Source of the DNA: Candidatus Woesearchaeota archaeon
GTDB lineage: Archaea > Nanobdellota > Nanobdellia > Pacearchaeales > GW2011-AR1
Assembly: GCA_964448605.1 (NCBI GenBank)
Contig: CAYUZV010000002.1
Coordinates: 39,804-103,803 of the forward strand
Length of the DNA: 64,000 nucleotides
Direction: 5' to 3'
The notes beneath the pieces were generated by a model, which made no database searches, was not told the DNA's origin, and saw only the letters and a list, made by a program, of their open reading frames with translations. The position numbers and the translations under genes were made by a program. Of this stretch, positions 25,111 to 42,185 are shown piece by piece (within the stretch, counting starts at the first letter, position 1; each line of letters opens with the position of its first letter).

Positions 25111-25181
25111 GGGTGATTAGGCTAGTGGCAAACCATCTCGCTTACATCGAGAATTCACCAGTTCGATTCTGGTATCACCCA
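25111..25181 (+). tRNA. tRNA-Val (UAC), copy 1
   Basis: Acceptor GGGTGAT/ATCACCC, anticodon arm TCTCG-CTTACAT-CGAGA, T arm ACCAG-TTCGATT-CTGGT. 71 nt. Confidence 0.8.
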
Positions 25182-25329
25182 TATAACTAAATAAGACTCA
25201 AAATTGATATAACAAAAGTTATTAATAAAAATAGTAGAACTTTGTTATACTTGTTTACACAAAGTATATCCAAAAGGATATACTCTCTAAATGGGAAGAA
25301 AATGCCATTGGACTTAAGAGGCTAAATAA

Positions 25330-25400
25330 GGGCGATTAGGCTAGTGGCAAACCATCTCGCTTACATCGAGAATTCACCAGTTCGATTCTGGTATCGCCCA
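25330..25400 (+). tRNA. tRNA-Val (UAC), copy 2
   Basis: Identical to copy 1 except for the acceptor pair 4:69 (C-G instead of T-A). Confidence 0.8.
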
Positions 25401-25475
25401 TGTTTTATCATAAATAATATGATAATAAATAAACACTAATTTTCGGATATTTCTTAAAAAGTGCACTATAGAAAT

Positions 25476-25485
25476 CTTTAAAAAG
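25476..25485 (+). promoter_or_regulatory. TATA box candidate for the precursor peptide gene
   Basis: ctttaaaaag lies 21-30 nt upstream of the ATG at 25506. Confidence 0.35.
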
Positions 25486-25505
25486 TTGAATAAACACCAA
25501 ATTTT

Positions 25506-25682
25506 ATGGAAACAAATTGTTTAGAAAAAGAAGTTGCAAAAGTAACTCCTCAAAAAACAGCGAACGAAAGAGCATATCTTTCAAGCATCATGCCAGAAGC
25601 TAGACAAGAAGGCTATACTTGTGTTACAGGTTGTAGCGATTGTGTAAGTTGCGATGGTAATGATTACGCACCACGAAAATAA
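25506..25682 (+). CDS. 58-aa Cys-rich candidate RiPP precursor (below the track cutoff)
   Basis: METNCLEKEVAKVTPQKTANERAYLSSIMPEARQEGYTCVTGCSDCVSCDGNDYAPRK. Sits directly upstream of the rSAM/SPASM gene. Confidence 0.55.
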   Translation: METNCLEKEVAKVTPQKTANERAYLSSIMPEARQEGYTCVTGCSDCVSCDGNDYAPRK

Positions 25683-25718
25683 TTCTTTTGTTAGCATTTA
25701 AAGAGTAGTGATGTCTTA

Positions 25719-26819
25719 GTGGAAAAAATGGCAAAAAAACAACTCTTCATCCAATGGGATTCTACAAATGATTGCAATCTAAGATGTAGACATTGTTATC
25801 ATAATAAAGAAGGAAATCAAAATCATTCTCAAGAAAAAAATAATTTAATGAGTTTACTAGAAGTTAAAGATATGGTTGATGATTTAGTTCAAACTTCTGA
25901 TAGATGGGATATGAATCCTCGTTTGCATATTTCTGGAGGCGAGCCTTTGATGAGAAAGGATTTATTTGATATTTTGGAATATACACAACAAAATGGAGTT
26001 ATAACAAAACTCCTTACAAATGGAACTTTAATTACAAGAGAAAAAGCAAAAGAAATAAAATCAAGAGGAGTAAATAGGGTTCAAATATCAATAGATGGGG
26101 ATAAAGAAAGACATAATTTTGTTAGGCAAAGAGAATACGCTTTCGATAAAGCAATGGAAGGCATTTCTAATTGTAGAGATACAAATATTGGGGTTACAAT
26201 TTCTTTTACTGCGATGCAATCAAATAAAGATTATATAGAACAAGCAATAAAAGACTCAATAAATGCAGGTGCAGAAATGTTTGGGATTCAATCTTATGTT
26301 CCAGATTCAAAATTAGGAATAAAAGACCCCGAATTTATTGATTCAAAAGAATTATATGAAATTTATCAGTTTCAAAGAGAATTAGACAAGAGATATGGAG
26401 ATAAAATTAATTTATTGGAAACAGAAGTTTTGTGGAATCTGATGCATTGCGACGATCCCTTGATGCAAGCATCAAGAAAAGAAGGAAAATATTTGGGCGG
26501 TTGTGGTGCAGGATTCTCAGGGGTTTCAGTTCTTTCTAATGGAAGGGTTTATCCCTGTAGAAGGCTTCCAATAGATATAGGGCATATTGGAGAGGGGTTA
26601 GTAAATTTAATAACTGAAAAAGAAATAATGCAAGATTTAAGGGATTTTCAAAAAATTACTAAAAATACTGGTTGTGAATATGTTACACATTGTAAAGGTT
26701 GTAGGGCAATTGCTTATGCAACAACAGGAGATTATATGGCAAAAGACCCAATGTGTTTTAGAAACTTAGTTAAACCAACAGATCTAAAAGATATGTATAT
26801 TGAAAATGCAAAGAGCTAA
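25719..26819 (+). CDS. radical SAM enzyme with SPASM domain (peptide maturase type)
   Basis: CNLRCRHCYH (CxxxCxxC) and a C-terminal Cys cluster GGCGAGFSGVSVLSNGRVYPCRR...CKGCRAIAY...DPMCF. An alternative ATG is at 25728. Confidence 0.85.
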   Translation: MEKMAKKQLFIQWDSTNDCNLRCRHCYHNKEGNQNHSQEKNNLMSLLEVKDMVDDLVQTSDRWDMNPRLHISGGEPLMRKDLFDILEYTQQNGVITKLLTNGTLITREKAKEIKSRGVNRVQISIDGDKERHNFVRQREYAFDKAMEGISNCRDTNIGVTISFTAMQSNKDYIEQAIKDSINAGAEMFGIQSYVPDSKLGIKDPEFIDSKELYEIYQFQRELDKRYGDKINLLETEVLWNLMHCDDPLMQASRKEGKYLGGCGAGFSGVSVLSNGRVYPCRRLPIDIGHIGEGLVNLITEKEIMQDLRDFQKITKNTGCEYVTHCKGCRAIAYATTGDYMAKDPMCFRNLVKPTDLKDMYIENAKS

Positions 26820-27309
26820 ACCTATAATTGTAGAATGTATGAAAAGATTAAATCCTAACTCTGTTTTAGATTTAGGTTGTGGTAAATGTAAATTTTCTAA
26901 GTTGTTTATTGACAGAGGGATAAATGTTACGGCAGTAGATAAAGAAAATACGATTGAATCAAAAGACAATTTAATTTTTGTTCAAAAAGACATTAGAGAT
27001 TTTGAATTTAAAAAAGACTTTGATTTAGTTGTTGGAACTGGAATTTTACACTTTCTTAAAAGAGGTGAGGCTCATCAAATGATAAAAAAGATAAAAGAGA
27101 ATACTATTTCGAATGGGTTTAACTTTTTTATTTGCATGTCAAACGAAGAAAGGTATAATGATGATATTCATTTCTATCCAAATAAAGAGGAGTTAAATAA
27201 ACTATACTCTGACTGGGAGATAATTCAAAATGAGCTTTGCCTTTCGAAGAAACATGGAGAAGGAATGCACCAACACAAAATGATTATCTTTTTAGCAAAA
27301 AAAATCTAA
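26800..27309 (+). CDS. class I SAM-dependent methyltransferase
   Basis: VLDLGCGKCKFS (motif I) and DLVVGTGILHFL. Confidence 0.7.
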   Translation: MKMQRAKPIIVECMKRLNPNSVLDLGCGKCKFSKLFIDRGINVTAVDKENTIESKDNLIFVQKDIRDFEFKKDFDLVVGTGILHFLKRGEAHQMIKKIKENTISNGFNFFICMSNEERYNDDIHFYPNKEELNKLYSDWEIIQNELCLSKKHGEGMHQHKMIIFLAKKI

Positions 27310-27310
27310 G

Positions 27311-28189
27311 ATGCCAACTTTTAGTGAGAGGTCAAAAGTATATCCATTTACAACGGAAAATTTGGCAGGATATATGAAACACCTAAATTTAGAAGATAAA
27401 AAGGTTTTATCTATTACTGGTTCAGGAGATCATATTTTAAATTCTTTTTATTATGGTGCAAATAGTGTGGTTGGATTTGACATTAATTTTCTTGCCTCAT
27501 TATTTGCAGAATTGAAATTTAATGCTATTAGGAAACTAGACTTTGAAGATTTCAAAAAATATTTTTTTGTCGAAAGTAATAAGTCAATGAGTTTTGAAAC
27601 TTACAAAAGAATAAGGGAAGATTTATCTGAATCTTGTTTAAGTTTTTTTGATAATCTCTATGAAGATTATGATTTTAGGGGAGCAGATTTAAGGAAAGGA
27701 AAATTGTTTAATAAAAGATTTGATTATGATAATTTAAGAATTAGAAGCAATCCTTATTTATTATCGGGGCAGAATTTTGAAAAAACAAAATTAAACATCC
27801 AAGATAAAAATATTCATTTAATGAATTGTAATATTAGAGATTTGTCATCCCAATTAGAAGATAATTTTGATGCAGTATTGCTTTCAAACTTAGCAGATTA
27901 TTCTCAACAAATCTATCCTAACAATCCAAATCATTTTAGTTTATTTTGTAACGAGATTCTCCCACCAGTTAAAAATCATTTGAATGAAGGAGGAATCATT
28001 TGCTCAGCTTATGTTTATGATGCAAGAGAAAAAGAGAATTACAAAAACCCTGTAGACAACCCAAACTTTAGAAGGGATATTATGGGGAATCTCGGAATGG
28101 ATTATAACGAAATAATATTCAACTCAATTGTTCCTGAAAAAGAAAATGCCTCAGATTTAGTGATCTTACTAACAAAGAAAAATGGATAA
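27311..28189 (+). CDS. DUF3419/BtaA-like SAM-binding protein
   Basis: VLSITGSGDHILN and GFDINFLASLFAELKFNAIRKLDFEDFKKYF resemble the BtaA-family N-terminal pattern. Confidence 0.5.
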   Translation: MPTFSERSKVYPFTTENLAGYMKHLNLEDKKVLSITGSGDHILNSFYYGANSVVGFDINFLASLFAELKFNAIRKLDFEDFKKYFFVESNKSMSFETYKRIREDLSESCLSFFDNLYEDYDFRGADLRKGKLFNKRFDYDNLRIRSNPYLLSGQNFEKTKLNIQDKNIHLMNCNIRDLSSQLEDNFDAVLLSNLADYSQQIYPNNPNHFSLFCNEILPPVKNHLNEGGIICSAYVYDAREKENYKNPVDNPNFRRDIMGNLGMDYNEIIFNSIVPEKENASDLVILLTKKNG

Positions 28190-28919
28190 TTTTAATAGAA
28201 ACAAATCAAAAGTTGAAAGAATAGGTGGAAGAAAAATAATCTCCAAAGAACACCAAAAACTAATTTTTTTAAAGAGAGAAGAATATTTCTATAATTTTTT
28301 CAGAAACAATCAATTTATTAAAACTCCTGACATTTATTCTATTGAAGGATTGAATATTAAAACATCTTTTGTTGAGGGGGAAGAAAAGAATACTCCTCTT
28401 GCAATAAAAGATTGGGCAAAAATTCATAATTATTTTATTGAACATCCCCTAGAAGAGAATAAGTTATTTATGCAACATGATATAAATCAGGTTTCTAGAT
28501 ATTTATTACAGCATGAAGATATCTCTAATATCCTGGGTAAAAAGATTGAATGTAAACTTAATGAAATAGATTTAAATGCCTCTATGAAAACATTGTTACA
28601 TGGAGATTTAACACCAAAGAATTTTATTTTTTATAATAATGAGAATTATTATTTTGATTTTGAATTAGGAGGCATAGGGCATCCTGCTAGAGATCTAGCT
28701 TCCTTAATTATCTCGAACCTTAGAAAAAAAGAAAAGTTGGTTAATCATTACAAGGATTCTTTTAGTCATGGTTATGGTGGTTTAGAAGAGGACATCGATA
28801 ATTGGACATTTGTCAGAGCATCTCAATTATATTTTATTTTTGATAAAAGAGAAGGTGGTGAAAAACAAAAAAATAAAATTAAGAATAATCTTATAGGAAT
28901 CATAGAAACTCTTGTTTGA
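28182..28919 (+). CDS. aminoglycoside/choline-kinase-family phosphotransferase
   Basis: LLHGDLTPKNFIF (catalytic loop) and DFELGGIGHPARDLA. Confidence 0.65.
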   Translation: MDNFNRNKSKVERIGGRKIISKEHQKLIFLKREEYFYNFFRNNQFIKTPDIYSIEGLNIKTSFVEGEEKNTPLAIKDWAKIHNYFIEHPLEENKLFMQHDINQVSRYLLQHEDISNILGKKIECKLNEIDLNASMKTLLHGDLTPKNFIFYNNENYYFDFELGGIGHPARDLASLIISNLRKKEKLVNHYKDSFSHGYGGLEEDIDNWTFVRASQLYFIFDKREGGEKQKNKIKNNLIGIIETLV

Positions 28920-29050
28920 TTAAAATCTTTTTTTTAAACAAATGAACTCTCAATGGATAAAAGAACCCTAAATGTTTTATTTAATGGATTATTGGATGAA
29001 GTTGATGGAAATTATGGAGAAATCAATTTCGAGAGCTGAATTAAGAAAGT

Positions 29051-29112
29051 ATATCCTTTATGATATAATCTTTTACACCGAGTAGTCCGAAGTTCGATTC
29101 TTCGATGGCCCA
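29051..29112 (+). repeat. tRNA-Val 3'-half-like repeat R1 (left arm type A)
   Basis: atatcctttatgatataatc + TTTACAC-CGAGT-AGTC-CGAAG-TTCGATT-CTTCG-ATGGCCC-A. No 5' half upstream. Confidence 0.75.
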
Positions 29113-29154
29113 TTTGATAGAAATTCTTATATATCTAAATTATTCTAGAGTTAT

Positions 29155-30234
29155 ATGAAAATTTATTTAATTAGGCATGGAGAAAGTATTGGAAATGCAA
29201 AAGGCATTCATCAAGGTCAAAAAAACGACTTTTCATTAAGCGAATCTGGAAAAAGTCAGGCCGAATTATTAAAAAAAAGATTTGAAGATATAAAAATCGA
29301 TGCTGCCTATTCATCTGACCTTAAAAGAGCAAAAGAAACAGCTGAATTTATATCAAAATCTAGAAATATAAAATTAATTATAGATAAACGGTTAAGAGAA
29401 AGAGATTTTGGATTAATTGGAGAACAAAAAGATATTATGTCTTCATGGAAAGATTTTTTACAGTATGAAACAAAAAAAGGAGTAAATCCTAGAGAAGCAC
29501 GACCTATTGATGGAGAAAGTGATAAAGATCATTTTGATAGGGTATATTCTTTTTTTGAAGATTTAAAAAAGAATCATGATGAAAAAGAAACAGTTTTAGT
29601 TGTTGGACACGGAGGAACAAACAAAGTTACCTTCGGAGTTATAGAACATTTTTCAGAGAAAGAAATGTATAAAACACCTCAAGCAAATACATGCGTTAAT
29701 GAGTTAGTCTTTGAAAACAATAAATGGATAGTAAATTCTATCAATAATACAGATCATCTAGAAATAGATGATGAAATAATAGGGATATTTAATAGCGTTA
29801 GAGACGAACCTTTAGATGTCATTAATAATCGATGCTGGGAAAAACATATAAAATTAAAAAAACTTTTTGATGATAAGGGATACAAAACAAAATATAAAAT
29901 TTGTTCTTTTAAATGGTCTGAGCAAAAGTTACCAATAGAAATAAAAGATTTAGTAGATAATGATTTAGACTATCATCTGTACTTGATAGTTAAGATTAAT
30001 GGTCTAAAATTACTAATAGATGCATCAAATGATTTTCAACTCCCTGAATATAATACTTGGAATGGAAAGAATAACTGCAATTTATGTATTTCTCCAGCAG
30101 AGTTTATTGAAGAAAATCTAGAAGAAATTTTAAATAAAAAGATTAAGGAGAAATATTCTAGTAATCAGATTATTTTTTTGAATGAAGTAAACGCTTTTCT
30201 AAAAAAGTTAAGAGAGAAAAGATATAAGAATTAA
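29155..30234 (+). CDS. histidine phosphatase (PGAM-like) fused to an unknown C-terminal domain
   Basis: LIRHGESIGN and VVGHGGTNK motifs in the first about 200 aa. The C-terminal 150 aa are unassigned. Confidence 0.6.
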   Translation: MKIYLIRHGESIGNAKGIHQGQKNDFSLSESGKSQAELLKKRFEDIKIDAAYSSDLKRAKETAEFISKSRNIKLIIDKRLRERDFGLIGEQKDIMSSWKDFLQYETKKGVNPREARPIDGESDKDHFDRVYSFFEDLKKNHDEKETVLVVGHGGTNKVTFGVIEHFSEKEMYKTPQANTCVNELVFENNKWIVNSINNTDHLEIDDEIIGIFNSVRDEPLDVINNRCWEKHIKLKKLFDDKGYKTKYKICSFKWSEQKLPIEIKDLVDNDLDYHLYLIVKINGLKLLIDASNDFQLPEYNTWNGKNNCNLCISPAEFIEENLEEILNKKIKEKYSSNQIIFLNEVNAFLKKLREKRYKN

Positions 30235-30251
30235 TTTTGAGCCGAAATTAT

Positions 30252-31560: not shown

Positions 31561-31723
31561 ATTTGATTGGAGAAAGGATGTTATAAATAACTTTCTATTA
31601 TTGTAACTATAAAGTTACTAAATTATCTTGTTTGGGTTTAATTAATGAGAATTCTATAAAGAGCATAACATTATTACTAAATATGGTTAAATTTCTCTGC
31701 AAATAATTAACTTGTTACAAATA

Positions 31724-31785
31724 ATATCCTTTATGATATATTTTTTTACACCGAGTAGTCCGAAGTTCGATTCTTCGTGGGACCA
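31724..31785 (+). repeat. tRNA-Val 3'-half-like repeat R2 (left arm type A)
   Basis: Identical to R1 over caccgagtagtccgaagttcgattcttcg. The acceptor strand is TGGGACC-A. Confidence 0.75.
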
Positions 31786-31914
31786 TTTCTAAGAATTTTG
31801 TATAGAAAGTTTTATATAATTTATTAGTTTATTTTTATTGTGAGGTGATGGTACCTCAGAAGCCTTATTCTGAACAACAATAAATTTTAAATAAAATAAA
31901 CATGCAGAAATACC

Positions 31915-32139: not shown

Positions 32140-32141
32140 AT

Positions 32142-33361: not shown

Positions 33362-33362
33362 A

Positions 33363-34699: not shown

Positions 34700-34780
34700 A
34701 ATAAAACATATATTTTGGCATTTAATAAATTAACTCCCTCCCTCAAAGATTATTTCAGCTTCTTTCTTAAAAAGAAAGAA

Positions 34781-34917
34781 GCAAAAGTTCTATCTCAAAA
34801 TGTTACTAAAGGGATAATAATGTTTACACCGAGCAAAAGCATTTTTAGTAAAAAGAATTAAATAAGAAAATGCTTTTGGGAGCAGAGGATTCGGAAGTTC
34901 GATCCTTCCTAGGCCCA
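34781..34917 (+). repeat. tRNA-Val 3'-half-like repeat R3 (left arm type B, hairpin insertion)
   Basis: aaaagttctatctcaaaatgttactaaagggataataatg + TTTACACCGAG + hairpin caaaagcatttt..aaaatgcttttg + GGAAG-TTCGATC-CTTCC-TAGGCCC-A. Confidence 0.7.
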
Positions 34918-34940
34918 TATTAAATATATAGTCCAAAACT

Positions 34941-34995
34941 CTGTATAAATTAAATAATACATTTTGCTATCCACTTTTGGAAGTAATTTGATAAA
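34941..34995 (+). repeat. S repeat copy 1
   Basis: ctgtataaattaaataatacattttgctatccacttttggaagtaatttgataa. Recurs at 37332 and 41053. Confidence 0.7.
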
Positions 34996-35212
34996 TTTCA
35001 ACCAAAAATTAATTAAATTCTATTAACTTATTTTAATTATGGGTTTCTCTGTAAAACTTGTAACCCAGAGAGTTTCAATGAGGTGAGGACTCATTGTCAT
35101 ATCTAAAGTAACTCTTCGGAGAATTCGGGTCGTCAGGAGGGTGAGCCTCAATTATTTAACTAAAAATCATGGTATAGAAAGTTTTAAATACTATTGTTAT
35201 TATTATAACAAT

Positions 35213-35770
35213 ATGGTTAATAATATAACAACATTGTCAATTTTAGAACCATTACTCTTTAAACAAGAATGGACACATTTAGCTGAGATTTCAAGGGAAC
35301 TAAAAATCCCTCATCCAACATTAAGAATTTATTTAAATGAATTTGAAAAACGAGGAATAGCTGTAAAACATAACAAAGGAAGATTAACTTTATACAAACT
35401 GAATTATTCTAACCCATTAATTATGGATTATATTACTCTAATTGAGAAAAATAGATTAATTAACAAGAGTTCTAAGGAAGTTTTATTAAAAGAGATAGTA
35501 TCTCTTTTGCATAATTTAGATAATCCCTCCCTAATATTTGGTTCTGCTTCTATTAGTCTAAAAACTGCTAATGATGTGGATTTAATTATTATCGGCAACC
35601 TTGATAAATCAAAATTTAGAGATTTTGAAAAAAAACATGACATAAAGTTTCATTTGATTAACTTGAAAAGATTAGAAGAAATAAGCCCAACCCTAAAGGA
35701 AGAAATAAAAAAGAAACATTTAATAGTTCAAGATTCTGAAAGAGTAATAAAATGGATGCTAACAAATTAA
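35213..35770 (+). CDS. wHTH + minimal nucleotidyltransferase (MNT-type antitoxin)
   Basis: LIFGSASISLKTANDVDLIIIG (GSx..DxD). N-terminal HLAEISRELKIPHPTLRIYLNEFEKRG. TATA gttttaaata upstream of the ATG at 35213. Confidence 0.55.
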   Translation: MVNNITTLSILEPLLFKQEWTHLAEISRELKIPHPTLRIYLNEFEKRGIAVKHNKGRLTLYKLNYSNPLIMDYITLIEKNRLINKSSKEVLLKEIVSLLHNLDNPSLIFGSASISLKTANDVDLIIIGNLDKSKFRDFEKKHDIKFHLINLKRLEEISPTLKEEIKKKHLIVQDSERVIKWMLTN

Positions 35771-36228
35771 GATGGTGCTGTAAGCAATCTGCTGGCCTAA
35801 AGATAGACAAACCCAATGAAAATCTTGCTAAAGAATATCTGCAAAGTGCAGATGAAACATTGTCTATTTTACAAGATATTAAAGGCAAGTCTAATATGTG
35901 GCTCGCTACAACAAAATACTATTCTGAATATTTTTCTATTTATGCTTTACTTCAAAAGATTGGGATTAAATGTGAAATTCACGATTGCACGATAGAATTT
36001 GCTAAGCTATTAGAAGAAATGAAAATAATTCCAGAAGGTTATTCAAAGAAACTTGAAGATGACAAGGATTTAAGAATAGATAACCAATATTATCTTAAAA
36101 ATAAGCCTGTTGATATAAATATTCGTGAAATAAGCGAGTTTATTCTTACAATAAAAAATAAAGTTAACTCTATAACCTTGGGTGAAGTGAACAATATAAG
36201 GGATGAGATTAAGAAACTTATTATCTAA
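35752..36228 (+). CDS. HEPN-domain protein (toxin partner of MNT)
   Basis: Helical AKEYLQSADETL...YYSEYFSIYALLQKIGIKCEIH pattern. Overlaps the MNT gene by 19 nt. Confidence 0.5.
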   Translation: MDANKLRWCCKQSAGLKIDKPNENLAKEYLQSADETLSILQDIKGKSNMWLATTKYYSEYFSIYALLQKIGIKCEIHDCTIEFAKLLEEMKIIPEGYSKKLEDDKDLRIDNQYYLKNKPVDINIREISEFILTIKNKVNSITLGEVNNIRDEIKKLII

Positions 36229-36244
36229 GATTTTGCAAGAAATA

Positions 36245-36306
36245 ATATCCTTTAGGATATAATCTTTTACACCGAGATGGCGGAGGTTCGATTCTTCGAG
36301 GGCCCA
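36245..36306 (+). repeat. tRNA-Val 3'-half-like repeat R4 (left arm type A)
   Basis: atatcctttaggatat (perfect palindrome) + aatcTTTTACACCGAG..GGAGG-TTCGATT-CTTCG-AGGGCCC-A. Confidence 0.7.
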
Positions 36307-36353
36307 TATTTTAAAATAATTAACTTTTTACATGATAGTCAAATTAAACTATT

Positions 36354-37331
36354 ATGTTGATAAAAGATAATGTTTATGGTGATGAAGAAATAAATGAGGC
36401 GGTATTGATAGAGTTAATCAATTCTGAAGCATTACAAAGATTAAAGGGTGTGTCTCAACAGGGATTGCCTCAAGATTATTATCATAGAATTGTATTCTCA
36501 AGATTTGACCATTCAATAGGGGCTTTAATTTTATTAAGAAGATTGGGTGCTGATATTGAAGAGCAAATTGCAGGACTTTTGCACGATATTTCTCATACAG
36601 CTTTTTCTCATATAGTTGATTGGGTTTTAGGAGACCCCACCAAAGAGGATTACCAAGATAATAACCATATTAATATTTTTGAAAGTTCTAATATCCCAAA
36701 AATTTTAGAAAAATATGGTTTTGATTATAGAAAAATTGCAGATATAGAATCATATCTTCTTTTAGAAAAACCTGCTCCAAGTTTATGTGTAGATAGGTTT
36801 GATTACACTATTAGAGAACTTAAGGATTTAGGAGAAAATGAAATAGTGAATTTATGTGTTAATAATCTAATGAATATTGATGACCAAATGGTATTTAAAA
36901 CAAAGGAATCTGCTGAAATGTTTGCTAACGCTTATTTAAAATTACAAAAAGAACATTGGGCAGGAAATGAAGCAAGAGCAAGGTATTCTATTTTAGCAGA
37001 TGCTTTAAAGATGGCTATTGATGGAAATCTAATCACAGAAGAAGACCTAATGAAAACTGACCAATTTATTATGAATATCTTAGAAAATAGCAATCACTAT
37101 CAAATTTTAGAGAAAGTAAATATGCTAAAGAATGGATTTAAGATAGAAGAATCCGATGAAGGAATAGAATTAAAGAAGAAGTTTAGGTATATTGATCCAG
37201 AGGTTTTAGTTGGAGAAACAATATCAAATTTAACAGAGCATTCACTTGATTATAAAAATTTATTAGAAAAAGAAAAGACTAATAAAGACTCTTTTGTTAA
37301 AATTAGTATAAGTAAATTAGGCCAAAACTAG
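36354..37331 (+). CDS. HD-domain phosphohydrolase
   Basis: FSRFDHSIGALIL...AGLLHDISHTAFSH (H..HD..H pattern). Confidence 0.7.
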   Translation: MLIKDNVYGDEEINEAVLIELINSEALQRLKGVSQQGLPQDYYHRIVFSRFDHSIGALILLRRLGADIEEQIAGLLHDISHTAFSHIVDWVLGDPTKEDYQDNNHINIFESSNIPKILEKYGFDYRKIADIESYLLLEKPAPSLCVDRFDYTIRELKDLGENEIVNLCVNNLMNIDDQMVFKTKESAEMFANAYLKLQKEHWAGNEARARYSILADALKMAIDGNLITEEDLMKTDQFIMNILENSNHYQILEKVNMLKNGFKIEESDEGIELKKKFRYIDPEVLVGETISNLTEHSLDYKNLLEKEKTNKDSFVKISISKLGQN

Positions 37332-37385
37332 GTATAAACTCAATAATACATTTTGCTATCCACTTTTGGAAGTAATATGATATAT
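37332..37385 (+). repeat. S repeat copy 2
   Basis: gtataaactcaataatacattttgctatccacttttggaagtaatatgata. Confidence 0.65.
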
Positions 37386-37427
37386 TAGTTTACAAAACTA
37401 TAAAAACTTCTTTCTAATTATTATTTT

Positions 37428-37760
37428 ATGACAAAAAATTATGCTGAAGAACTAAAAGAATTAATCAATAAATATAAGGAAGAAGGTTTTGAATGGGGAA
37501 AGCCAATTGATTATCTTGAGTTTAGAAACGGGTGTTCCAAAGAAGAGATGGAAAAAGAGATTCTTGATTATTCCAATGTTGAATTTGTTGAAAAACAAAG
37601 AGAACAAGGAGAAACAAGATATAAATTATATTTTGTATATAGTTCAAAAACAGGAAGAGTTTATGTATTAAAGTTCACAGAAAAAATAAGAATAATTACA
37701 GTTTATCCGATAGGGAGACAGACCTTAAAAAATTACAAAGGAAAGTTTAAAAAATCATAA
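37428..37760 (+). CDS. hypothetical protein (possible DUF4258-like partner of the next gene)
   Basis: 110 aa. C-terminal IRIITVYP. Weak call. Confidence 0.35.
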   Translation: MTKNYAEELKELINKYKEEGFEWGKPIDYLEFRNGCSKEEMEKEILDYSNVEFVEKQREQGETRYKLYFVYSSKTGRVYVLKFTEKIRIITVYPIGRQTLKNYKGKFKKS

Positions 37761-37827
37761 ATGATTTTTAGGACTTCCTGAATTCACATTCAGAAAGTTT
37801 AAAAAAGTCTAAAAACTTATAATAATC

Positions 37828-38184
37828 ATGGCAATAAAAATACATTATAGTGAAGAAGACGATGTTTTTACTATTTACGATAATGAACATCAACCTTTAG
37901 AAACAATAGAATTTTCAGAATTTTTAAATATAGATATTGATAGAAACAAAAGAATTGTAGGATTAGAGATATTTTATGCCAGCGAGTTCTTTTCTGCATT
38001 GAATAAATTAATCACTAAGACATTATTGGAGTCTATTAATAATGTATCTATAGAATGTAATAATTATAGGAATAATTGGTTTATGGTTCTAGTCTTTAAA
38101 AATAAGGGGGATGAAATAAGGGTCCAATTACCTCCATTAAGAAAGTCAGATTATACTAGTCCACTTATCGCTAGTTGTGAATAA
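37828..38184 (+). CDS. DUF2283-like protein
   Basis: IHYSEEDDVFTIY...IDIDRNKRIVGLEIFYASEF matches the DUF2283 pattern. Confidence 0.5.
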   Translation: MAIKIHYSEEDDVFTIYDNEHQPLETIEFSEFLNIDIDRNKRIVGLEIFYASEFFSALNKLITKTLLESINNVSIECNNYRNNWFMVLVFKNKGDEIRVQLPPLRKSDYTSPLIASCE

Positions 38185-38192
38185 CAACATAT

Positions 38193-38331
38193 AGAACAAA
38201 AGTTCTATCTCAAAATGTTACTAAAAGGATAATACTGTTTACACCGAGCAAAAGCATTTTTAGTAAATATTATAAATAAGAAGATGCTTTTGGGAGCAGA
38301 GGATTCAGCAGTTCGATTCTTCGATGGCCCA
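38193..38331 (+). repeat. tRNA-Val 3'-half-like repeat R5 (left arm type B, hairpin insertion)
   Basis: agaacaaaagttctatctcaaaatgttactaaaaggataatactg + TTTACACCGAG + hairpin + ..TTCGATT-CTTCG-ATGGCCC-A. Confidence 0.7.
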
Positions 38332-38379
38332 TATTTTTGAAAAAGAAAGATTTTTAAATAACCTATTTATTGATTTAAA

Positions 38380-38667
38380 ATGGCAGAACAACAAATTTAT
38401 TCTGGAAGATTGCTTGAAAATCCTTCAGGAGTGTATACTAGGTGTGAACTTCTTGTTGGACAAGTAGAACTAACTTTAAAATTTCCAAGTGATGCTTTAA
38501 GACATCATAAACTATTACAATATGATTGTTTTAATTTTTCTGGAGATTATGATAATCAAAGTATAACTCCTGAACATATAACACCTACAGAAAGAGTTTC
38601 AGATTTATTAAAAGAAATAGAGGATTGGGACCCTAGTGAAATGGAAAGGGTAACAAAAGGATTGTAA
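38380..38667 (+). CDS. hypothetical protein
   Basis: 95-aa ORF. TATA tttttaaata upstream. Confidence 0.35.
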   Translation: MAEQQIYSGRLLENPSGVYTRCELLVGQVELTLKFPSDALRHHKLLQYDCFNFSGDYDNQSITPEHITPTERVSDLLKEIEDWDPSEMERVTKGL

Positions 38668-38720
38668 CAAAACATATATCAAAATGGCTATCAAAAAACC
38701 AATTTTTATAGTCTATTGGT

Positions 38721-39284
38721 TTATAGCTTACAGTCCTCAATAAATTTTTTGGAAATATAAAAAGTTCTTGAAGCTATTTTTTTAAGATGATGAGAAATAG
38801 ATTTTCTGTTTCCAATTGCAACATAAATGACTTTCTTACTAAAACCTATTGCAGATTTTACAGCTCCAGAAAAATCTCCATCATTAGAGATTAAATATGC
38901 TTCATCATAAATTCCTTTTTGAGCATCTAAAGCTAAATCCAATGCTAAATTAACATCACTTGCCTTTTCGATATAATAAATCTCTCCATCTTTTTTCCTT
39001 TTTTCAAGTCTTCCGAAAATGATATTAAACTTTTTTATTTTTCTTAATTTTTCAAGAAAACTCTGTTGTTCTGCATACATTTTAGGATTACTAAATTGTT
39101 CAATTGGAGCAATATAATAATTAATCCTTACTAGTTCATTATCTTCAATTAGTTTTTTACATAATTTCTCTATATCAATCTTACAATTAAAAGTCTTTTT
39201 AATAGAAAAATAAAAATTGCTTCCATCAATATAAATTGCTCTTTTGATCTTTTTAGAATTATTTTTCATGGTAAGGGATAGCAT
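38721..39284 (-). CDS. NYN/LabA-like nuclease-domain protein
   Basis: AIYIDGSNFYF and LISNDGDFSGAVK motifs. Confidence 0.6.
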   Translation of the reverse strand: MLSLTMKNNSKKIKRAIYIDGSNFYFSIKKTFNCKIDIEKLCKKLIEDNELVRINYYIAPIEQFSNPKMYAEQQSFLEKLRKIKKFNIIFGRLEKRKKDGEIYYIEKASDVNLALDLALDAQKGIYDEAYLISNDGDFSGAVKSAIGFSKKVIYVAIGNRKSISHHLKKIASRTFYISKKFIEDCKL

Positions 39285-39354
39285 AGGATCCGGTTAAAGA
39301 TCCTATGGGATTTATTAATATATTTAAGGATAAATCATTTATATAACTTTCTAT

Positions 39355-39439
39355 GGAACAAAAGTTCTATCCAAAATGTTACTAAAAGGATAATATTATT
39401 TACACCAATATGGCGAAGGTCCTATTGTGTGCAGGGTCA
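39355..39439 (+). repeat. degenerate tRNA-half-like repeat R6 (left arm type B)
   Basis: ggaacaaaagttctatccaaaatgttactaaaaggataatattatttacaccaat..gcagggtca. The T arm has decayed. Confidence 0.55.
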
Positions 39440-39490
39440 TATAAACTAAAGGATACAAATTAATATAAACACGTCCCAACAAATATTTTT

Positions 39491-39826
39491 ATGGGATTAG
39501 AATTTGACTTGTCTGAAATAACCGAAATTGAAGAAATAAGAGAATTAAAAAATGAATTGGCTCCTAGAAATCAGTGCAGAAGTTATGTTCAAAAAAAAGG
39601 TGGTAAAGCAGAACTTCTTGAAAAAGAGGAGTTTGATACTCATTATAAAGGTGGAGATTTTATGGAAGGTCCATATAGAGAAACTTTTGGTGATGGATAT
39701 GGAGAGCCCTATAATCCAAATAGACAAGCATTTGGAAAATTAAAAAAAGGAAATATTGTTTATTGTGAGTTATCTGAGGGTAACCAAGAGAAGACTAAGA
39801 TGTTATTAGAAAAAACAACTCGTTAA
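39491..39826 (+). CDS. hypothetical protein
   Basis: 111-aa ORF. Confidence 0.35.
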   Translation: MGLEFDLSEITEIEEIRELKNELAPRNQCRSYVQKKGGKAELLEKEEFDTHYKGGDFMEGPYRETFGDGYGEPYNPNRQAFGKLKKGNIVYCELSEGNQEKTKMLLEKTTR

Positions 39827-39850
39827 AAAATTAACTTTTAGGTCAATTAG

Positions 39851-39891
39851 TTTACACCGAGTAGTTCGAAGTTCGATTCTTCGAGGGTCCA
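39851..39891 (+). repeat. tRNA-Val 3'-half-like repeat R7 (no conserved left arm)
   Basis: TTTACAC-CGAGT-AGTT-CGAAG-TTCGATT-CTTCG-AGGGTCC-A. Confidence 0.7.
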
Positions 39892-39941
39892 TATAATTTA
39901 TAAATCTTAAAAATATTAATTGTTTGTAAAAAAGAGGAAAG

Positions 39942-40211
39942 ATGAAAAATCATTTTGATATAAAAAAGAGATTGATAAGCCATAAAAAGCTGGCTCAGGA
40001 AAGAACTATTTTAGCTAATGAAAGAAATACTTTAGCATATATTAGAACGGGTTTTGGAGCTCTTGTTTTAGGACTTGCTTTAATCAAATTATTTGAAGAA
40101 CATATCAAATATGTTTATGCTGGTTATGGTGTTGCTGCACTCGGAATAATTTTTATTATTTTAGGACTTGTTTATTATCCAATAAGAAAGAAAAATATTT
40201 TGAAATATTGA
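39942..40211 (+). CDS. DUF202/YidH-like small membrane protein
   Basis: ERTILANERNTLAYIRTGFG followed by two TM helices. Confidence 0.55.
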   Translation: MKNHFDIKKRLISHKKLAQERTILANERNTLAYIRTGFGALVLGLALIKLFEEHIKYVYAGYGVAALGIIFIILGLVYYPIRKKNILKY

Positions 40212-40258
40212 TTTATTCCTCATAGGATTATTTATTTAATATTCAATAAAAAGAAAAA

Positions 40259-40945
40259 ATGAAAACAAAAATCATAGCAACAATCGGACCGAAATCCATG
40301 TCCTTGCAGATTATAAAACAAATGAAATCAAACGGGTTAGACATAGCCAGGATAAACACAAAATGGGGAAACGAAAAACAATGGAATACTATGATAAAAA
40401 ATCTTCAAAAATTAAAAATAGAAATTATGATTGATATAAAAAATTTAGATGTGATTAATTGGATAAACACTAAAAAAATAGATTATCTTGCAGTTTCATA
40501 TGCTCAAAATACAAGACAAATTAAAAATATAAAAGATTTAATTAAAGATAAAAAAATCAAGACTATCTCTAAAATCGAAACTGAGAAGGGTTTGGAAAAT
40601 ATCAATGAACTAATAAAGATTAGTGATGGTATTATGATTGCAAGAGGTGATTTATCAAGAAATATCTCTTTTGAAAAGGTTCCTTATTATAAAAAATTAA
40701 TTGTTGATAAATGCAATTCAAAAAGGAAATTTGTAATTGTTGCTACAGAAATGATGCTTTCAATGGTCAAATCAAAAATTCCAACTAATGCTGAAGTGGA
40801 TGATGTTTTTAGCTCGGTTGTTGATGGGGGAAATGCTTTAATGCTTTCAGAAGAAACAGCAATTGGAAAATATCCTGTTTTATCTATTAAAACTATGAAA
40901 AAAATAATAATTTATGCTGAGAAATATTTAGAAAAGAGAATATAG
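40259..40945 (+). CDS. pyruvate-kinase barrel-domain protein (228 aa; appears to lack the B and C domains)
   Basis: TKIIATIGPKS, IARGDLS, ATEMMLSMV and PTNAEVDDVFSSVVDGGNALMLSEETAIGKYPV. Confidence 0.6.
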   Translation: MKTKIIATIGPKSMSLQIIKQMKSNGLDIARINTKWGNEKQWNTMIKNLQKLKIEIMIDIKNLDVINWINTKKIDYLAVSYAQNTRQIKNIKDLIKDKKIKTISKIETEKGLENINELIKISDGIMIARGDLSRNISFEKVPYYKKLIVDKCNSKRKFVIVATEMMLSMVKSKIPTNAEVDDVFSSVVDGGNALMLSEETAIGKYPVLSIKTMKKIIIYAEKYLEKRI

Positions 40946-41026
40946 AAAAAAGGTTCTATCTCGAAATGTTACTAAAAGGATAATAATTTTTAAACTGGGT
41001 GTCTGAAGTTCAATTCTCTCTGTTCT
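40944..41026 (+). repeat. degenerate tRNA-half-like repeat R8 (left arm type B)
   Basis: gaaaaaaggttctatctcgaaatgttactaaaaggataataatttttaaactgggtgtctgaagttcaattctctctgttcta. Confidence 0.5.
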
Positions 41027-41052
41027 ATATTAAATCAAGAGGTTAAAACTTA

Positions 41053-41105
41053 GTGTAAATTAAATAATACATTTTGTTATCTAATTTTGGAAGTAATTTG
41101 ATAAG
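41053..41105 (+). repeat. S repeat copy 3
   Basis: gtgtaaattaaataatacattttgttatctaattttggaagtaatttgataa. Confidence 0.65.
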
Positions 41106-41139
41106 ATTCTAAAACCAAAACATTTAAATAAAAGGTAAG

Positions 41140-41421
41140 ATGTATCTTACGATGGTAAATATTAATTTAACTAGAATAAGTTCAAAAGGGCAGATTGTTA
41201 TACCTATTGATATGAGAAATGATTTTAAAGAGGGTGAAGAGCTTCTAATTGTAAAAGATGAAGATAGAATCATTTTAAAAAAATCTTCAAAAATATCTGA
41301 ACAAATGAGAGAAGATTTAGAATTTGCAAAAAGAACTGATGAGGCTTTGAAAAGAATTGAATCTGGAAGCGGAACCAAGATGAATTTTGATGATTTCTTA
41401 AATGAAATGAAAAAATGGTAG
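41140..41421 (+). CDS. AbrB/SpoVT-type antitoxin
   Basis: TRISSKGQIVIPIDMRNDFKEGEELLIVKDEDRIILKK. Confidence 0.6.
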   Translation: MYLTMVNINLTRISSKGQIVIPIDMRNDFKEGEELLIVKDEDRIILKKSSKISEQMREDLEFAKRTDEALKRIESGSGTKMNFDDFLNEMKKW

Positions 41422-41500
41422 AGTTAATTTTTGAAGAAAGATTCAAAAGAATTTTTTCTAAAATTAAAGACTCGACATTAAAAGAAAAAATTATATTACA
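41415..41500 (+). pseudogene. 5' remnant of a RelE/ParE-like toxin gene cut off by repeat R9
   Basis: The ATG overlaps the antitoxin stop (atggtag). MVELIFEERFKRIFSKIKDSTLKEKII then runs straight into TACACCGAG. Confidence 0.4.
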
Positions 41501-41588
41501 CCGAGCAAAAGTATTTTCAGTTAAAGTATTAAAACAAGAAAATGCTTTTGGGAGCAGAGCATTCCGGGTTCGATTCCTTATGTGCCTA
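41495..41588 (+). repeat. tRNA-half-like repeat R9 (no left arm, hairpin insertion)
   Basis: attacaccgag + caaaagtatttt..aaaatgcttttg + ggagcagagcattccgggttcgattccttatgtgccta. Confidence 0.6.
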
Positions 41589-41834
41589 TTATCCATAAAC
41601 TTTTTCTCTTGTATCTATATCAAATACAATCCAGATATTATTTCTTAACTCTAACAAAACCCTGTATCCTCCAATTCTTAATCTAAAACAGCTTTTGTAG
41701 CCCTGTAATTTTTTTATATCAACTCTTTTTTCTTCTTGTAAATCTTTTAATTTTGAATTAATTAAATTTCTCATATTAAAAGGTAATTTAAAATATTTCT
41801 TTTTTACTTTTGAAGAGAACTCAATCTTTTTCAT
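41589..41834 (-). CDS. RelE/ParE-family toxin
   Basis: KLQGYKSCFRLRIGGYRVLLEL..NIWIVFDIDTREKVY. Confidence 0.6.
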   Translation of the reverse strand: MKKIEFSSKVKKKYFKLPFNMRNLINSKLKDLQEEKRVDIKKLQGYKSCFRLRIGGYRVLLELRNNIWIVFDIDTREKVYG

Positions 41835-41879
41835 CTGAAAACATACCTCTTATGTTGAAAATGCATAAAAATTAATTTA

Positions 41880-42113
41880 TTAATTTTTTTCATGCTCCTT
41901 TAAAATTTCTTCAAAAGAAATTGTTTCTCCTTTTTTAAACTCATCTAAAGCTTCTCTCCTTAAACTTTCACTTTCATTAGACAAAGGAAGAAAAGGTTCT
42001 ATAAAATGCCAAATAACATCATCATAAGAATCTAACAAAAGCTGTTCTTTTAGTTTTGTCATTGCAAGGTGAGTTTCATCCTTTATTCTAAGTTGCATAC
42101 TATTTGAATACAT
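41880..42113 (-). CDS. putative antitoxin of the RelE-like gene
   Basis: 77 aa, directly upstream of the toxin gene on the same strand. Confidence 0.4.
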   Translation of the reverse strand: MYSNSMQLRIKDETHLAMTKLKEQLLLDSYDDVIWHFIEPFLPLSNESESLRREALDEFKKGETISFEEILKEHEKN

Positions 42114-42140
42114 TTAGTATTTATATATCTTTCGGTTTTA

Positions 42141-42185
42141 AAGTGCTATCTCGAAATTGTTACTAAAAAGATAATAATGTTTGCA
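42141..42185 (+). repeat. left-arm-only copy R10 (type B arm, no tRNA-like part)
   Basis: aaagtgctatctcgaaattgttactaaaaagataataatgtttgc. The last copy of the array. Confidence 0.55.

Follow-up and report, generated by a model that had tools for sequence, protein, structure and literature searches.

A 64-kb stretch of DNA from a small-genome DPANN archaeon (Candidatus Woesearchaeota; contig CAYUZV010000002.1, positions 39,804–103,803; referred to below as the window) contains a 17-kb stack of short accessory-gene cassettes, which lie downstream of tRNA-Val genes and are separated by orphan 3' parts of tRNA-Val. The array is probably a chromosomal hotspot where small non-autonomous elements of one to five genes were inserted serially, by site-specific recombination, into sites derived from tRNA-Val(UAC), with the recombinase acting in trans. 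The evidence comprises the anatomy of the cassette boundaries, the spread of these boundaries across genomes, cassettes that are shared between genomes and have different neighbours there, one insertion caught within a tRNA-Val gene, and the lack of a linked recombinase.

Organization of the array

The two tRNA-Val(UAC) genes at the start of the array (no. 1 and no. 2; Table 1) are 97% identical and differ in one compensated acceptor-stem pair. A first-pass annotation of this DNA had taken them for the only full tRNAs of the region, and indeed ARAGORN and Rfam call just these two; no further match to the tRNA model was obtained between 24.5 and 43.5 kb, where none of the fragments reached even E=5. 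The orphan 3' parts, present in at least eight copies, are all located on the + strand, like the head tRNA. They delimit cassette units of 0.4–3.8 kb, many of which are “empty”, that is, consist of an arm and a half alone. Cargo genes occur on both strands, and AT-rich, TATA-like sequences follow the halves. Each of the ten repeats reported by the first-pass annotation was found in place on the + strand. Its description of two copies as armless applies to 41495 but not to 39851, which has an arm of type C, and its last copy (42141) consists of an arm only. Further boundaries are located at 25206–25286, 34917–34999, 37306–37395, 38664–38697 and 41027–41109.

A boundary is composed of an arm, the core TTTACAC, which corresponds to the tRNA-Val anticodon loop, and the remainder of tRNA-Val up to its 3' end. 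Every orphan piece begins at TTTACAC, which gives the pieces a sharp common left limit, and most have an arm ahead of them. The arms, 26–85 nt each, belong to at least four sequence types (A to D) and most plausibly are right element ends. A profile derived from 108 distinct tRNA-Val 3' halves detected the pieces at 29072, 31745, 36266 and 39851 with E-values of 1e-11 to 1e-13 (44–50 bits), and those at 34885 and 38299 with E-values of 2e-4 and 5e-7, respectively (21–29 bits). Arm B matched the window five times (0.00 matches expected from a shuffling control) and a T-loop-plus-acceptor pattern six times (0.01 expected), always on the + strand. From the head outward, the halves scored 48.7, 49.7, 20.7, 46.0, 29.2, not detected, 44.3, not detected, 8.4 and none; this tendency to drop with distance from the tRNA head fits newer insertions nearer the head. 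The copies at 39355, 40944 and 41495 are degenerate.

Three copies (34781, 38193 and 41495) contain a 44–45-nt insert with perfect 12-bp inverted ends, CAAAAGCATTTT...AAAATGCTTTTG, located after CCGAG and before GGAGCAGAG. The stretch from the insert through GGGAGCAGAG(G/C)ATTC is conserved among the three, the T arm and acceptor to the right of it differ, and arm B stands to its left in two of them. Either a miniature element or what remains of a non-canonical intron could account for this insert, which travels with the left side of the half.

Orphan halves and arms in related archaea

Species-representative genomes were scanned with the narrow pattern TTTACACCGAG-N9-GTTCGATTCTTCG and metagenome contigs with the general pattern TTTACACCGAG-N9-GTTCGATTC; the two scans yielded at least 125 loci, which are labelled L001 onward. 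Among the 133 matches listed, 99 are ordinary full tRNA-Val genes from many organisms, and the rest are orphan 3' parts behind arms. Counting only those with at least 60 nt of upstream sequence, the 3'-half profile identified at least 38 full-length orphan halves from at least 28 sources, all Woesearchaeota/Pacearchaeota-like archaea. A profile of tRNA-Val 5' parts found two orphan 5' halves among the loci listed, which amount to 821 kb (L111 and L065).

All four arm types recur outside the window: arm A in L008, L042, L056, L076 and L115; arm B in L052, L041, L023 and L074; arm C in L001, L004, L005, L047 and L081 and, more diverged, in L091 and L115; and arm D in L014, L032 and L082. Across genomes, each type stands at a fixed distance from the core. 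Arm B of the window is 94% identical to that of L052, and the type-C arm at 39851 is 87.5% identical to the arms of three Woesearchaeota contigs, L001 among them, while the host tRNA-Val genes are 66–67% identical. This much higher similarity of the arms indicates either horizontal spread or strong constraint.

The fragment at 31745 deviates by 1 nt from the genuine tRNA-Val 3' half of the Woesearchaeota metagenome-assembled genome (MAG) L003, so the fragments are pieces of genuine tRNA-Val alleles of other lineages. A second copy of the resident 3' end, CTGGTATCRCCCA, does not occur in the window. Both results agree with the first-pass annotation in that the fragments are not copies of the resident tRNA genes. 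The first orphan half of L052 has exactly the sequence of the 3' half of its host tRNA, as in a classical attL/attR pair.

Cassettes shared between genomes

In blastn comparisons with all loci, five cargo blocks of the window matched other contigs at 74–91% DNA identity. The first-pass annotation had asked for such a comparison of synteny; its outcome is that the blocks behave as exchangeable modules and that homology to other genomes breaks at the repeats. The block at 35176–36236 is 82% identical to L042 over 1063 nt, and the match stops 4 nt before hairpin A, the arm of type A (36236 as against 36240); in L042, hairpin A and a half follow the match too. Relatives of the proteins encoded by this block (cargo 4) are also present in the L056 array. 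The NYN block (38729–39351) matches L008, L082 and L094 at 78–84% and L154 at 84%, the match ending 4 nt before arm B (39355). In L008, L082 and L094 it starts about 10 nt after a tRNA-Val 3' end, this end being that of a full tRNA in one case and that of an orphan half, a different one each time, in the other two. The window and L008 have kept the NYN gene, arm B and the degenerate half together, and in L154 and L159 the NYN gene is far from any tRNA-Val, yet flanked by pieces of a decayed half and arm.

The block with the 95-aa gene (38387–38648) is 80% identical to L095, where it is located 192 nt downstream of a full tRNA-Val, past a short duplicated tRNA 3' end. The segment 41118–41234, which is part of the block with the 93-aa gene, is 74% identical to L103 and L108, in which it lies about 80–115 nt downstream of tRNA-Val, past a partial half. 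Relatives of these two cargo genes occur about 80–210 nt downstream of tRNA-Val, past short tRNA-derived remnants. The block at 41588–42141 matches L004 at 81% and L031 at 91%; the match to L031 stops at 42141, the first nucleotide of the last arm. A further small cargo gene directly follows a full tRNA in L018 and in L097, and in L022 it follows an orphan half. A Logan contig from the same sample series begins 80 nt ahead of the histidine phosphatase gene of cargo 2, at the end of the preceding tRNA half.

Circular contigs were absent from the collected loci. L013 and L111 were considered as an empty and an occupied version of one site and rejected; they are 96.7% identical over a shared neighbouring gene, but their tRNA regions are rearranged. 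L161–L164 represent one population in several metagenomes, with two NYN paralogues and differences in gene presence at about 6.3–8.2 kb and beyond 11.3 kb; no tRNA-Val pieces were detected in these contigs.

Element ends and insertion events

The segment 25261–29071 of the window is a complete type-A element, consisting of hairpin A with the spacer AAAA, tRNA-Val no. 2, a radical-SAM operon, and hairpin A with the spacer TTTA. Type-A elements in the window, L056 and L115 have the same 26-nt hairpin at either end and TTTACAC outside both; the elements of L056 and L115 end as in the window and carry different cargo. The left junction, TTTACAC followed by AAAGT and a hairpin, occurs at 25254 and in L056, L115 and L074, and the stretch 25214–25294 is 81% identical (blastn) to L056. 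The core-like motifs around hairpin A are direct, not inverted, repeats, and solo hairpins between core-like repeats are found at 31714 and 36232. In a second junction pattern, arm and TTTACA are followed by AAACTATAAAAACTTC; it is found at 37396, where the toxin-antitoxin cassette begins, and again at 42187, behind the last arm.

Such ends could also belong to transposon-type cassettes that are moved by a transposase encoded elsewhere, either a DDE enzyme generating a 7-bp target duplication or an IS200/IS605-like single-strand enzyme that reads hairpins and inserts beside TTAC. The near-identical palindromic ends with their inverted central spacer (AAAA left, TTTA right), the TTTACAC on both sides and the solo hairpins would suit this idea, as would the TTAC within the core, the known target of IS608. 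We nevertheless regard it as very unlikely, as none of the families listed for ORFs of the window or for those near fragments is a transposase, arms B, C and D have no matching left-end copies, left-end hairpins being seen for type A only, and duplicated tRNA 3' blocks are typical of the att sites of recombinases, not of transposition.

One insertion was caught in L111: 1,230 nt separate the two parts of a tRNA-Val gene, the break falling exactly behind TTTACAC, and a valid tRNA-Val results when the parts are joined. A membrane protease-like protein is encoded in the insert, together with a tRNA-Val of the element's own, which has a 33-nt intron between TTTACA and CCGAG and is a valid tRNA once the intron is removed. 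An intron of 29–33 nt exactly at this position is present in tRNA-Val genes or pseudogenes of L111 (3290–3370, − strand), L090 (7633–7727, − strand) and L114 (approximately 1760–1839, + strand). Each of these introns ends in ACTAAAAG, a motif that arm B holds too. An intron between TTTACA and CCGAG destroys the insertion target.

Mixed halves give further information on breakpoints. The halves of L041, L076 and L082 are hybrids that combine a non-matching 5' T-stem strand (AGGAG or GAAGG) with CTGGT and an ATCGCCC-like acceptor, which is the host-type allele of the window's own lineage. Mixed halves also occur in L052, in L097 and at 36266 and 38299 of the window. Short duplications extend to the tRNA 3' end from the T loop in L057 and from the 3' strand of the T stem in L095, and the half of L159 is truncated at the T loop. 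Breakpoints were thus seen in the anticodon loop, in the T loop and at the tRNA 3' end. With three kinds of breakpoint, it is likely that two or more recombination systems, or a degree of homologous recombination between repeats, were involved. In L095 (2810–2925), the 14-nt duplicate of the tRNA-Val 3' end (CTGGTATCGCCCAT) bounds a stretch of about 100 nt directly behind the full tRNA; this stretch contains a degenerate T arm in inverted orientation.

Homologous recombination might even account for the whole array, if general machinery, with no dedicated enzyme, used tRNA-Val segments and arms as short anchors for swapping in DNA from relatives. Crossovers at several positions within the 42-nt block, mosaic T and acceptor stems, the inconsistent linkage of cargo, arm and half, and the lack of an array-linked recombinase are compatible with this explanation. 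It leaves unexplained, however, why every orphan piece starts exactly at TTTACAC, why few specific arms stand at a fixed distance from the core, and how the 7-nt direct repeats and terminal hairpins of type-A elements and the precise split in L111 arose. Moreover, tracts of 7–45 nt between diverged alleles are short for general recombination. We therefore judge it quite unlikely.

An open reading frame (ORF) of about 320 aa, similar to LAGLIDADG homing endonucleases, ends at or just before the tRNA-Val 5' end in L017 (1552–2589) and L040 (6642–7652), preceded in both by a 21–25-nt stub of the tRNA-Val 5' end, and is also present in L092, L094, L103, L108 and L113. It was considered as the nuclease acting on the array. 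It abuts tRNA-Val in at least seven loci, but neither the window nor most arrays have it, and it looks like a different type of insertion at the same tRNA, that of a homing endonuclease.

Orphan halves are not working tRNA genes

The orphan pieces are likely to be att-type relics of site-specific insertion into tRNA-Val and not split or intron-containing tRNA genes. All five T-stem pairs are intact in each of the 99 full tRNAs, while mismatches affect 12 of the 38 orphan halves (among the matches listed). No orphan 5' half was found in the window with the profile of tRNA-Val 5' parts, nor did a reverse-complement copy of arm B, the only arm searched in this manner, occur on either window strand. 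Split, permuted or intron-containing tRNA genes were ruled out on account of the missing 5' partners, the broken T stems and the failure of the covariance model.

The alternative that the pieces are functional, either as working split, permuted or intron-containing tRNA-Val genes or as tRNA-like processing signals that punctuate transcripts, was considered in view of related archaea. Nanoarchaeum has split tRNA genes, and intron-containing tRNA-Val genes exist in the related contigs L111, L090 and L114. In addition to the partnerless state of the halves in the window and the scarcity of 5' halves in the 821 kb, several copies are truncated or insert-bearing, and two intact tRNA-Val(UAC) genes are already there; together with the broken T stems, the lack of a complementary arm B and the failure of the fragments in the tRNA covariance model, this renders a function of that kind hardly conceivable. 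The halves stop at the discriminator base and have no CCA, hence they are derived from genes and not from mature tRNA. For the same reason, we discarded the idea that a neighbouring reverse transcriptase had produced them as cDNA of mature tRNA halves.

Search for a recombinase

Neither Pfam nor NCBIfam identified a recombinase among the approximately 60 ORFs of the window. When the 1,550 stop-to-stop ORFs of the 821 kb were searched by phmmer, with E. coli XerD and the integrases of lambda and SSV1 as queries, one hit was returned, which is not in the window; it is a Xer-like gene of L039, located 3 kb from a tRNA-Val without orphan halves. All three approaches thus bear out the first-pass annotation, which had recognized no recombinase in the 64 kb. 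It had also proposed to look near other tRNA-Val loci, and apart from the unlinked gene of L039 no recurrent candidate came to light: among the 25 commonest Pfam families listed for 105 larger and 93 smaller ORFs, all at most 4 kb away from fragments in the fragment-bearing sources, no recombinase, transposase or excisionase family recurred. ORFs near fragments in the relatives encode toxin-antitoxin (TA) pairs and accessory enzymes according to Pfam. TnpA or TnpB families were not among the ORFs scanned with Pfam, and a replication or packaging module with a tyrosine recombinase was not found in the window or near fragments.

An autonomous partner element was not detected in viral contigs, searched with arms A, B and C and with the narrow and general half patterns, nor among the matches listed from the genome and metagenome scans. 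A viral or plasmid partner was dismissed, as the matches in viral contigs are phage tRNA-Val genes or chance matches in coding sequence. Several ORFs were checked as hidden recombinases. Sequence comparison with the PDB named no function for those at 21479, 6491 and 60978, and the few weak PHROG matches obtained with the ORFs at 21479, 34064, 35141, 35752 and 42218 of the window and with those of L022 and L073 are to families of unknown function.

Next to tRNA-Val, at least 56 DPANN loci (e.g., L001, 5655–7451) encode a protein of about 600 aa that contains a nucleotidyltransferase domain and shows a weak HD-like match; its gene lies either divergently upstream of the tRNA or downstream at a distance of 135 nt to 3 kb. 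In JABIDS010000023, cassettes lie between the tRNA and this gene. As an enzyme at the head of the array it was rejected, since it is present with or without arrays and absent from the window; we treat it as host synteny.

Stacked partial tRNAs might alternatively represent a graveyard, in which attR scars were left at tRNA-Val by plasmids or viruses that have since lost their integrases and most of their genes, with no cassette mobility today. Integrase-mediated insertion is classically recognized by partial tRNA repeats beside a tRNA gene (PMC9897764; PMC8371274), the distal copies are decayed, and the first orphan half of L052 has the sequence expected of such a scar. This explanation appears unlikely in view of the fragment-bearing sources, in which neither an integrase nor an integrase fragment was found, the size of the units (merely 0.4–3.8 kb, many of them empty), arms that are better conserved across genomes than host tRNAs, and the occurrence of the same cargo behind different halves and arms in different genomes. 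The first-pass annotation had also offered a stack of attR scars. Its assignment of the repeats to tRNA-Val-derived att relics holds, but the relics do not stem from the tRNA of this host, as no scar in the window matches it.

A model for growth of the array

Under the hotspot reading, elements would circulate among species, each carrying a foreign tRNA-Val 3' block or a complete tRNA-Val gene, as in L111 and in the type-A element of the window; this would explain why the halves, with their varied acceptor stems, are unlike one another and unlike the resident tRNAs. A new element may land in any existing core, be it that of a functional tRNA or that of an orphan arm-plus-half site. Since insertion into an orphan site costs the cell nothing, the array would grow. 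As no half in the window has the resident 3' end, either the insertions entered orphan sites, which would be harmless, or the head tRNAs arrived last. With no recombinase in or beside the cassettes, the enzyme would have to act in trans; it could be a host enzyme, for instance XerA, or the integrase or transposase of an autonomous element elsewhere. We infer that the recombination is enzymatic and still active, and the nature of the enzyme is likewise a matter of deduction. More than one recombination system probably uses this tRNA.

A more far-reaching version, which we put forward tentatively as a possibility, is that of a dedicated gene-capture platform at tRNA-Val in DPANN archaea of the Woesearchaeota/Pacearchaeota type. 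Short cassettes, each with an arm and a tRNA-Val-derived site at its end, would be excised, swapped between species and re-inserted by a recombinase encoded away from the array, perhaps the housekeeping XerA. The system would be a functional archaeal counterpart of integrons that is built on a tRNA half in place of attC, and element-borne tRNA-Val genes, some of them protected by an intron exactly at the target, would replace or spare the host gene.

Several points weigh against a hotspot of site-specific insertion. No recombinase was identified for the presumed enzymatic step, and crossovers at several positions could stem from homologous recombination between diverged repeats. The linkage of cargo, arm and half is inconsistent: the NYN gene keeps its arm and downstream half in two genomes, while the cargo at 35.2–36.2 kb keeps hairpin A and loses the half, and the cargo at 41.9–42.1 kb has another arm in L031. 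Neither an excised or circular form nor an exact pair of empty and occupied sites in one population was found. The hairpins carry uncompensated changes, which leaves a role of the hairpin unproven. Finally, no half in the window has the resident 3' end, and the recorded insertions therefore did not displace the 3' end of the head tRNAs.

Cargo and surroundings

The window has a G+C content of approximately 29%, and its ORFs include archaeal markers (archaeal-type Rad50, GatB, a NAC-domain protein, ribosomal protein S2 and a PACE-CTERM-like S-layer protein). Housekeeping genes are located on either flank of the region, hence the array is chromosomal. The nearest named relatives of the NYN protein are found in MAGs of Candidatus Pacearchaeota, Woesearchaeota and Nanoarchaeota. 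Contigs that share exact window proteins are short siblings with the same arrangement.

Boundaries and cargo are compiled in Table 1. Pfam confirmed most cargo assignments (radical SAM/SPASM, YcaO with nitroreductase, histidine phosphatase, zeta-like kinase, HD, DUF2283, NYN and the pyruvate-kinase fragment); a HEPN/MNT pair proposed for 35141–36228 received no Pfam support. The GC-rich stretch ahead of cargo 4 (35030–35150) was considered as a structured RNA and dropped, having a fold z-score of -0.24 and no Rfam match; it is partly conserved in L023 (81% over 70 nt).

Table 1 Boundaries and cargo of the tRNA-Val cassette array (positions in the window)
Position	Strand	Feature	Basis
25111–25181	+	Intact tRNA-Val(UAC) no. 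1, array head	ARAGORN; Rfam RF00005, 60.1 bits
25206–25260	+	Arm-like sequence and core TTTACAC (25254–25260), no half after it; junction of arm, core and left end	Sequence comparison
25261–25286	+	Hairpin A, left end of type-A element, AAAGTATATCC-AAAA-GGATATACTCT	Repeat family; comparable left ends after TTTACAC in L056, L115
25330–25400	+	Intact tRNA-Val(UAC) no. 2, within type-A element	ARAGORN, Rfam
25506–28919	+	Cargo 1: precursor-like 58-aa ORF, radical SAM/SPASM enzyme, two methyltransferases, APH-like kinase; operon of the type for ribosomally synthesized and post-translationally modified peptides (RiPPs)	Pfam
29046–29112	+	Hairpin A, right end (29046–29071); core and 3' half (29072–29112; acceptor ATGGCCC)	Profile, 48.7 bits
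29155–31560		Cargo 2: histidine phosphatase (+), zeta/AAA_33 kinase (-), nucleotidyl transferase (-)	Pfam
31714–31785	+	GTTACAA, hairpin A, core and 3' half (31745–31785; acceptor TGGGACC)	Profile, 49.7 bits
31915–34699		Cargo 3: 74-aa ORF, YcaO, nitroreductase, 211-aa ORF (-)	Pfam
34781–34917	+	Arm B, TTTACACCGAG (34823–34833), 45-nt insert (34834–34878), remainder of half to 34917 (TAGGCCC)	Repeat families, profile
34917–34999	+	Arm D remnant without core, “empty” unit	Repeat family; resembles arms in L082, L014, L032
35141–36228	+	Cargo 4: ORFs of 209 and 158 aa	blastn
36232–36306	+	TTTGCAA, hairpin A, core and 3' half (36266–36306; hybrid T stem GGAGG/CTTCG; AGGGCCC)	Profile
36354–37331	+	Cargo 5: HD-domain protein	Pfam
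37306–37395	+	Arm D and core TTTACAA (37389–37395), leading straight into promoter-like left end AAACTATAAAAACTTC, no half	Repeat families
37428–38184	+	Cargo 6: BrnT-like and DUF2283 pair	Pfam
38185–38331	+	Arm B, TTTACACCGAG (38238–38248), 44-nt insert (38249–38292), remainder of half (hybrid T stem AGCAG/CTTCG; ATGGCCC)	Profile; arm 94% to L052
38380–39354		Cargo 7: 95-aa ORF (+), truncated arm (38664–38697), NYN gene (38721–39284, -)	blastn
38664–38697		Truncated arm	Inside cargo 7
39355–39439	+	Arm B, core, degenerate half ending GTGCAGGGTCA	Sequence comparison
39491–39826	+	Cargo 8: 111-aa ORF	ORF list
39812–39891	+	Arm C, core and 3' half (39851–39891; AGGGTCC)	44.3 bits; 88–90% to L001, L004, L005 (blastn)
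39942–40945	+	Cargo 9: 89-aa DUF202 protein, 228-aa pyruvate-kinase barrel fragment	Pfam
40944–41109	+	Arm B with degenerate core (TTTAAAC) and degenerate half, followed by arm D (41027–41109)	Repeats
41140–41421	+	Cargo 10: 93-aa ORF	blastn
41495–41590	+	Core ATTACACCGAG, 45-nt insert (41506–41550), degenerate half, no arm	Repeats, profile
41589–42113	-	Cargo 11: two small ORFs, probably a TA pair	blastn
42141–42217	+	Arm B, core-like TTTGCAA (42180–42186), promoter-like left end as at 37396; distal end of array	Repeats

Upstream of the array, a group-II-intron-like reverse transcriptase is encoded at 22709–24142 (− strand), with an Rfam RT-16 RNA motif at 22477–22610 (+ strand, 71.8 bits). 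The adjoining small winged-helix ORF (24223–24537) shows a weak Replic_Relax match. The second unit of the tRNA-Val array of L057 contains a reverse transcriptase that is 75% identical to that of the window and has the same winged-helix neighbour; more distant copies are found in L080 and L124, 4–5 kb from tRNA-Val. Between the winged-helix ORF and tRNA-Val no. 1, at least seven GACGAAAGGGAC-like units are located at 24763–24834, with an inverted copy at 24985–25010. These units resemble iterons or protein-binding repeats and possibly derive from an integrated plasmid-like module. At 20105–21121 and 59198–60862, 38 kb apart and on opposite strands, are the genes of two paralogous proteins that are secreted or Ig-like (Big_13) and 32–35% identical.

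Significance of the array

DPANN archaea have tiny genomes with few recognisable mobile elements, and the route by which they exchange accessory genes is hard to see. The locus described here and at least 27 similar ones from unrelated samples reveal a recurrent, sequence-defined route for accessory genes, the cargo behind tRNA-Val being TA pairs, nucleases, peptide-modification operons and small metabolic enzymes. If the cassettes are mobile and the enzyme acts in trans, the arrays would constitute a second kind of cassette-capture system beside integrons, the unit of arm, TTTACAC and half would be a concrete substrate for biochemical tests, and the intron-containing genes would lend themselves to a natural test of whether tRNA introns shield genes from integration, as has long been proposed. 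Should the array be a field of scars only, it would still be a precise marker of a flexible genome region and a caution for tRNA annotation.

Comparison with known systems

The first-pass annotation had likened the layout to an integron cassette array, a comparison that holds for the exchangeable cassettes. The array is one-directional, its cassettes mostly contain one to three genes, are rich in TA and accessory functions and are each followed by a site-like element, and cassettes without a recombinase are common to several genomes. In other respects the two differ. Integrons have IntI at the head, whereas no such enzyme was found here among the approximately 60 window ORFs or with the three tyrosine-recombinase seeds. 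An attC site is an imperfect inverted repeat (R''-L''...L'-R') that is folded as a single strand; the corresponding element of the array is an arm, TTTACAC and a tRNA-Val 3' half. Integron cassettes are mostly promoterless, in one orientation and served by a common promoter, in contrast to cargo on both strands with its own promoter-like sequences, and the place of attI and the Pc promoter is taken by a tRNA gene. Integrons with IntI and attC have been reported in Archaea (PMC9668308).

With classical tRNA islands, the array shares same-strand direct repeats of the tRNA 3' part at the far ends. Such islands have an integrase near the att site, whereas none was present in the window or near the orphan halves listed; moreover, their repeat is about identical to the resident tRNA, which is the case in L052 but not in the window. 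Accretion of integrative elements together with integrase-less cis-mobilisable elements (CIME) is known from Streptococcus. In the tycheposon islands of Prochlorococcus, elements are stacked between partial tRNAs (bioRxiv 10.1101/2020.12.28.424599). Like tycheposon and CIME islands, the array lies directly downstream of a tRNA, has partial tRNA copies between units, with deeper copies degenerate, and carries adaptive or defensive cargo, newer arrivals pushing older ones outward. Tyrosine recombinases and replication genes belong to the equipment of tycheposons and integrative elements, and integrase fragments persist in the islands; none of these was found in the fragment-bearing loci. Compared with tycheposon islands, the units are far smaller (0.4–3.8 kb), the halves come from many foreign tRNA-Val alleles, and the host is archaeal. 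Elements that are flanked by att sites and lack recombination genes, as in the window and its relatives, are CIME- or satellite-like.

Archaeal tRNA-targeting integrases comprise SSV, pTN3, pT26-2, PYG1 and SNJ2 types; the review that describes them does not mention DPANN hosts (PMC8371274). Their att block likewise extends from inside the tRNA to its 3' end, partial tRNA copies are left behind, a well-known result of integration in Archaea and Bacteria (PMC9897764; PMC8371274), and the anticodon loop and stem form a natural 7-bp overlap with inverted flanks. The elements of these integrases, however, measure 9–23 kb and encode the integrase, which in the SSV type is split on integration; here, neither an intact nor a split integrase was found.

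Similarity also exists to integrative mobile elements exploiting Xer (IMEX), the pdif modules of Acinetobacter plasmids and mobile insertion cassettes (MICs), which are small modules, often of the TA type, bounded by short protein-binding sites and dependent on an enzyme from another locus. One arm of the dif site of Pyrococcus abyssi and hairpin A have GGATATAATC in common (PMC2958812), a single 10-nt match noticed post hoc, and the half-sites of hairpin A face the opposite way from those of dif. Judged by the usual 11-6-11 design, from which the lineage's own dif may differ, no dif-like site abuts the core at the window junctions. As to MICs, no cognate insertion sequence is known for the ends. 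The hairpin and TTAC of IS200/IS605-type elements are present, while TnpA and TnpB were not among the ORFs scanned.

The split and intron-containing tRNA genes of DPANN archaea and Nanoarchaeota resemble the array in that tRNA genes occur in pieces, and the intron of L111 is located at the insertion target. A split gene of the Nanoarchaeum type needs a 5' half with a complementary trailer, for which the window offers neither a 5' half nor a reverse complement of arm B; the orphan halves are partnerless, decaying by-products of integration. Full-text literature searches aimed at this subject retrieved no description of integrase-less tRNA-Val cassette arrays in DPANN archaea. Distinct from integrons, tycheposons and integrase-bearing islands alike, the array works like an integron or a field of cis-mobilisable elements.

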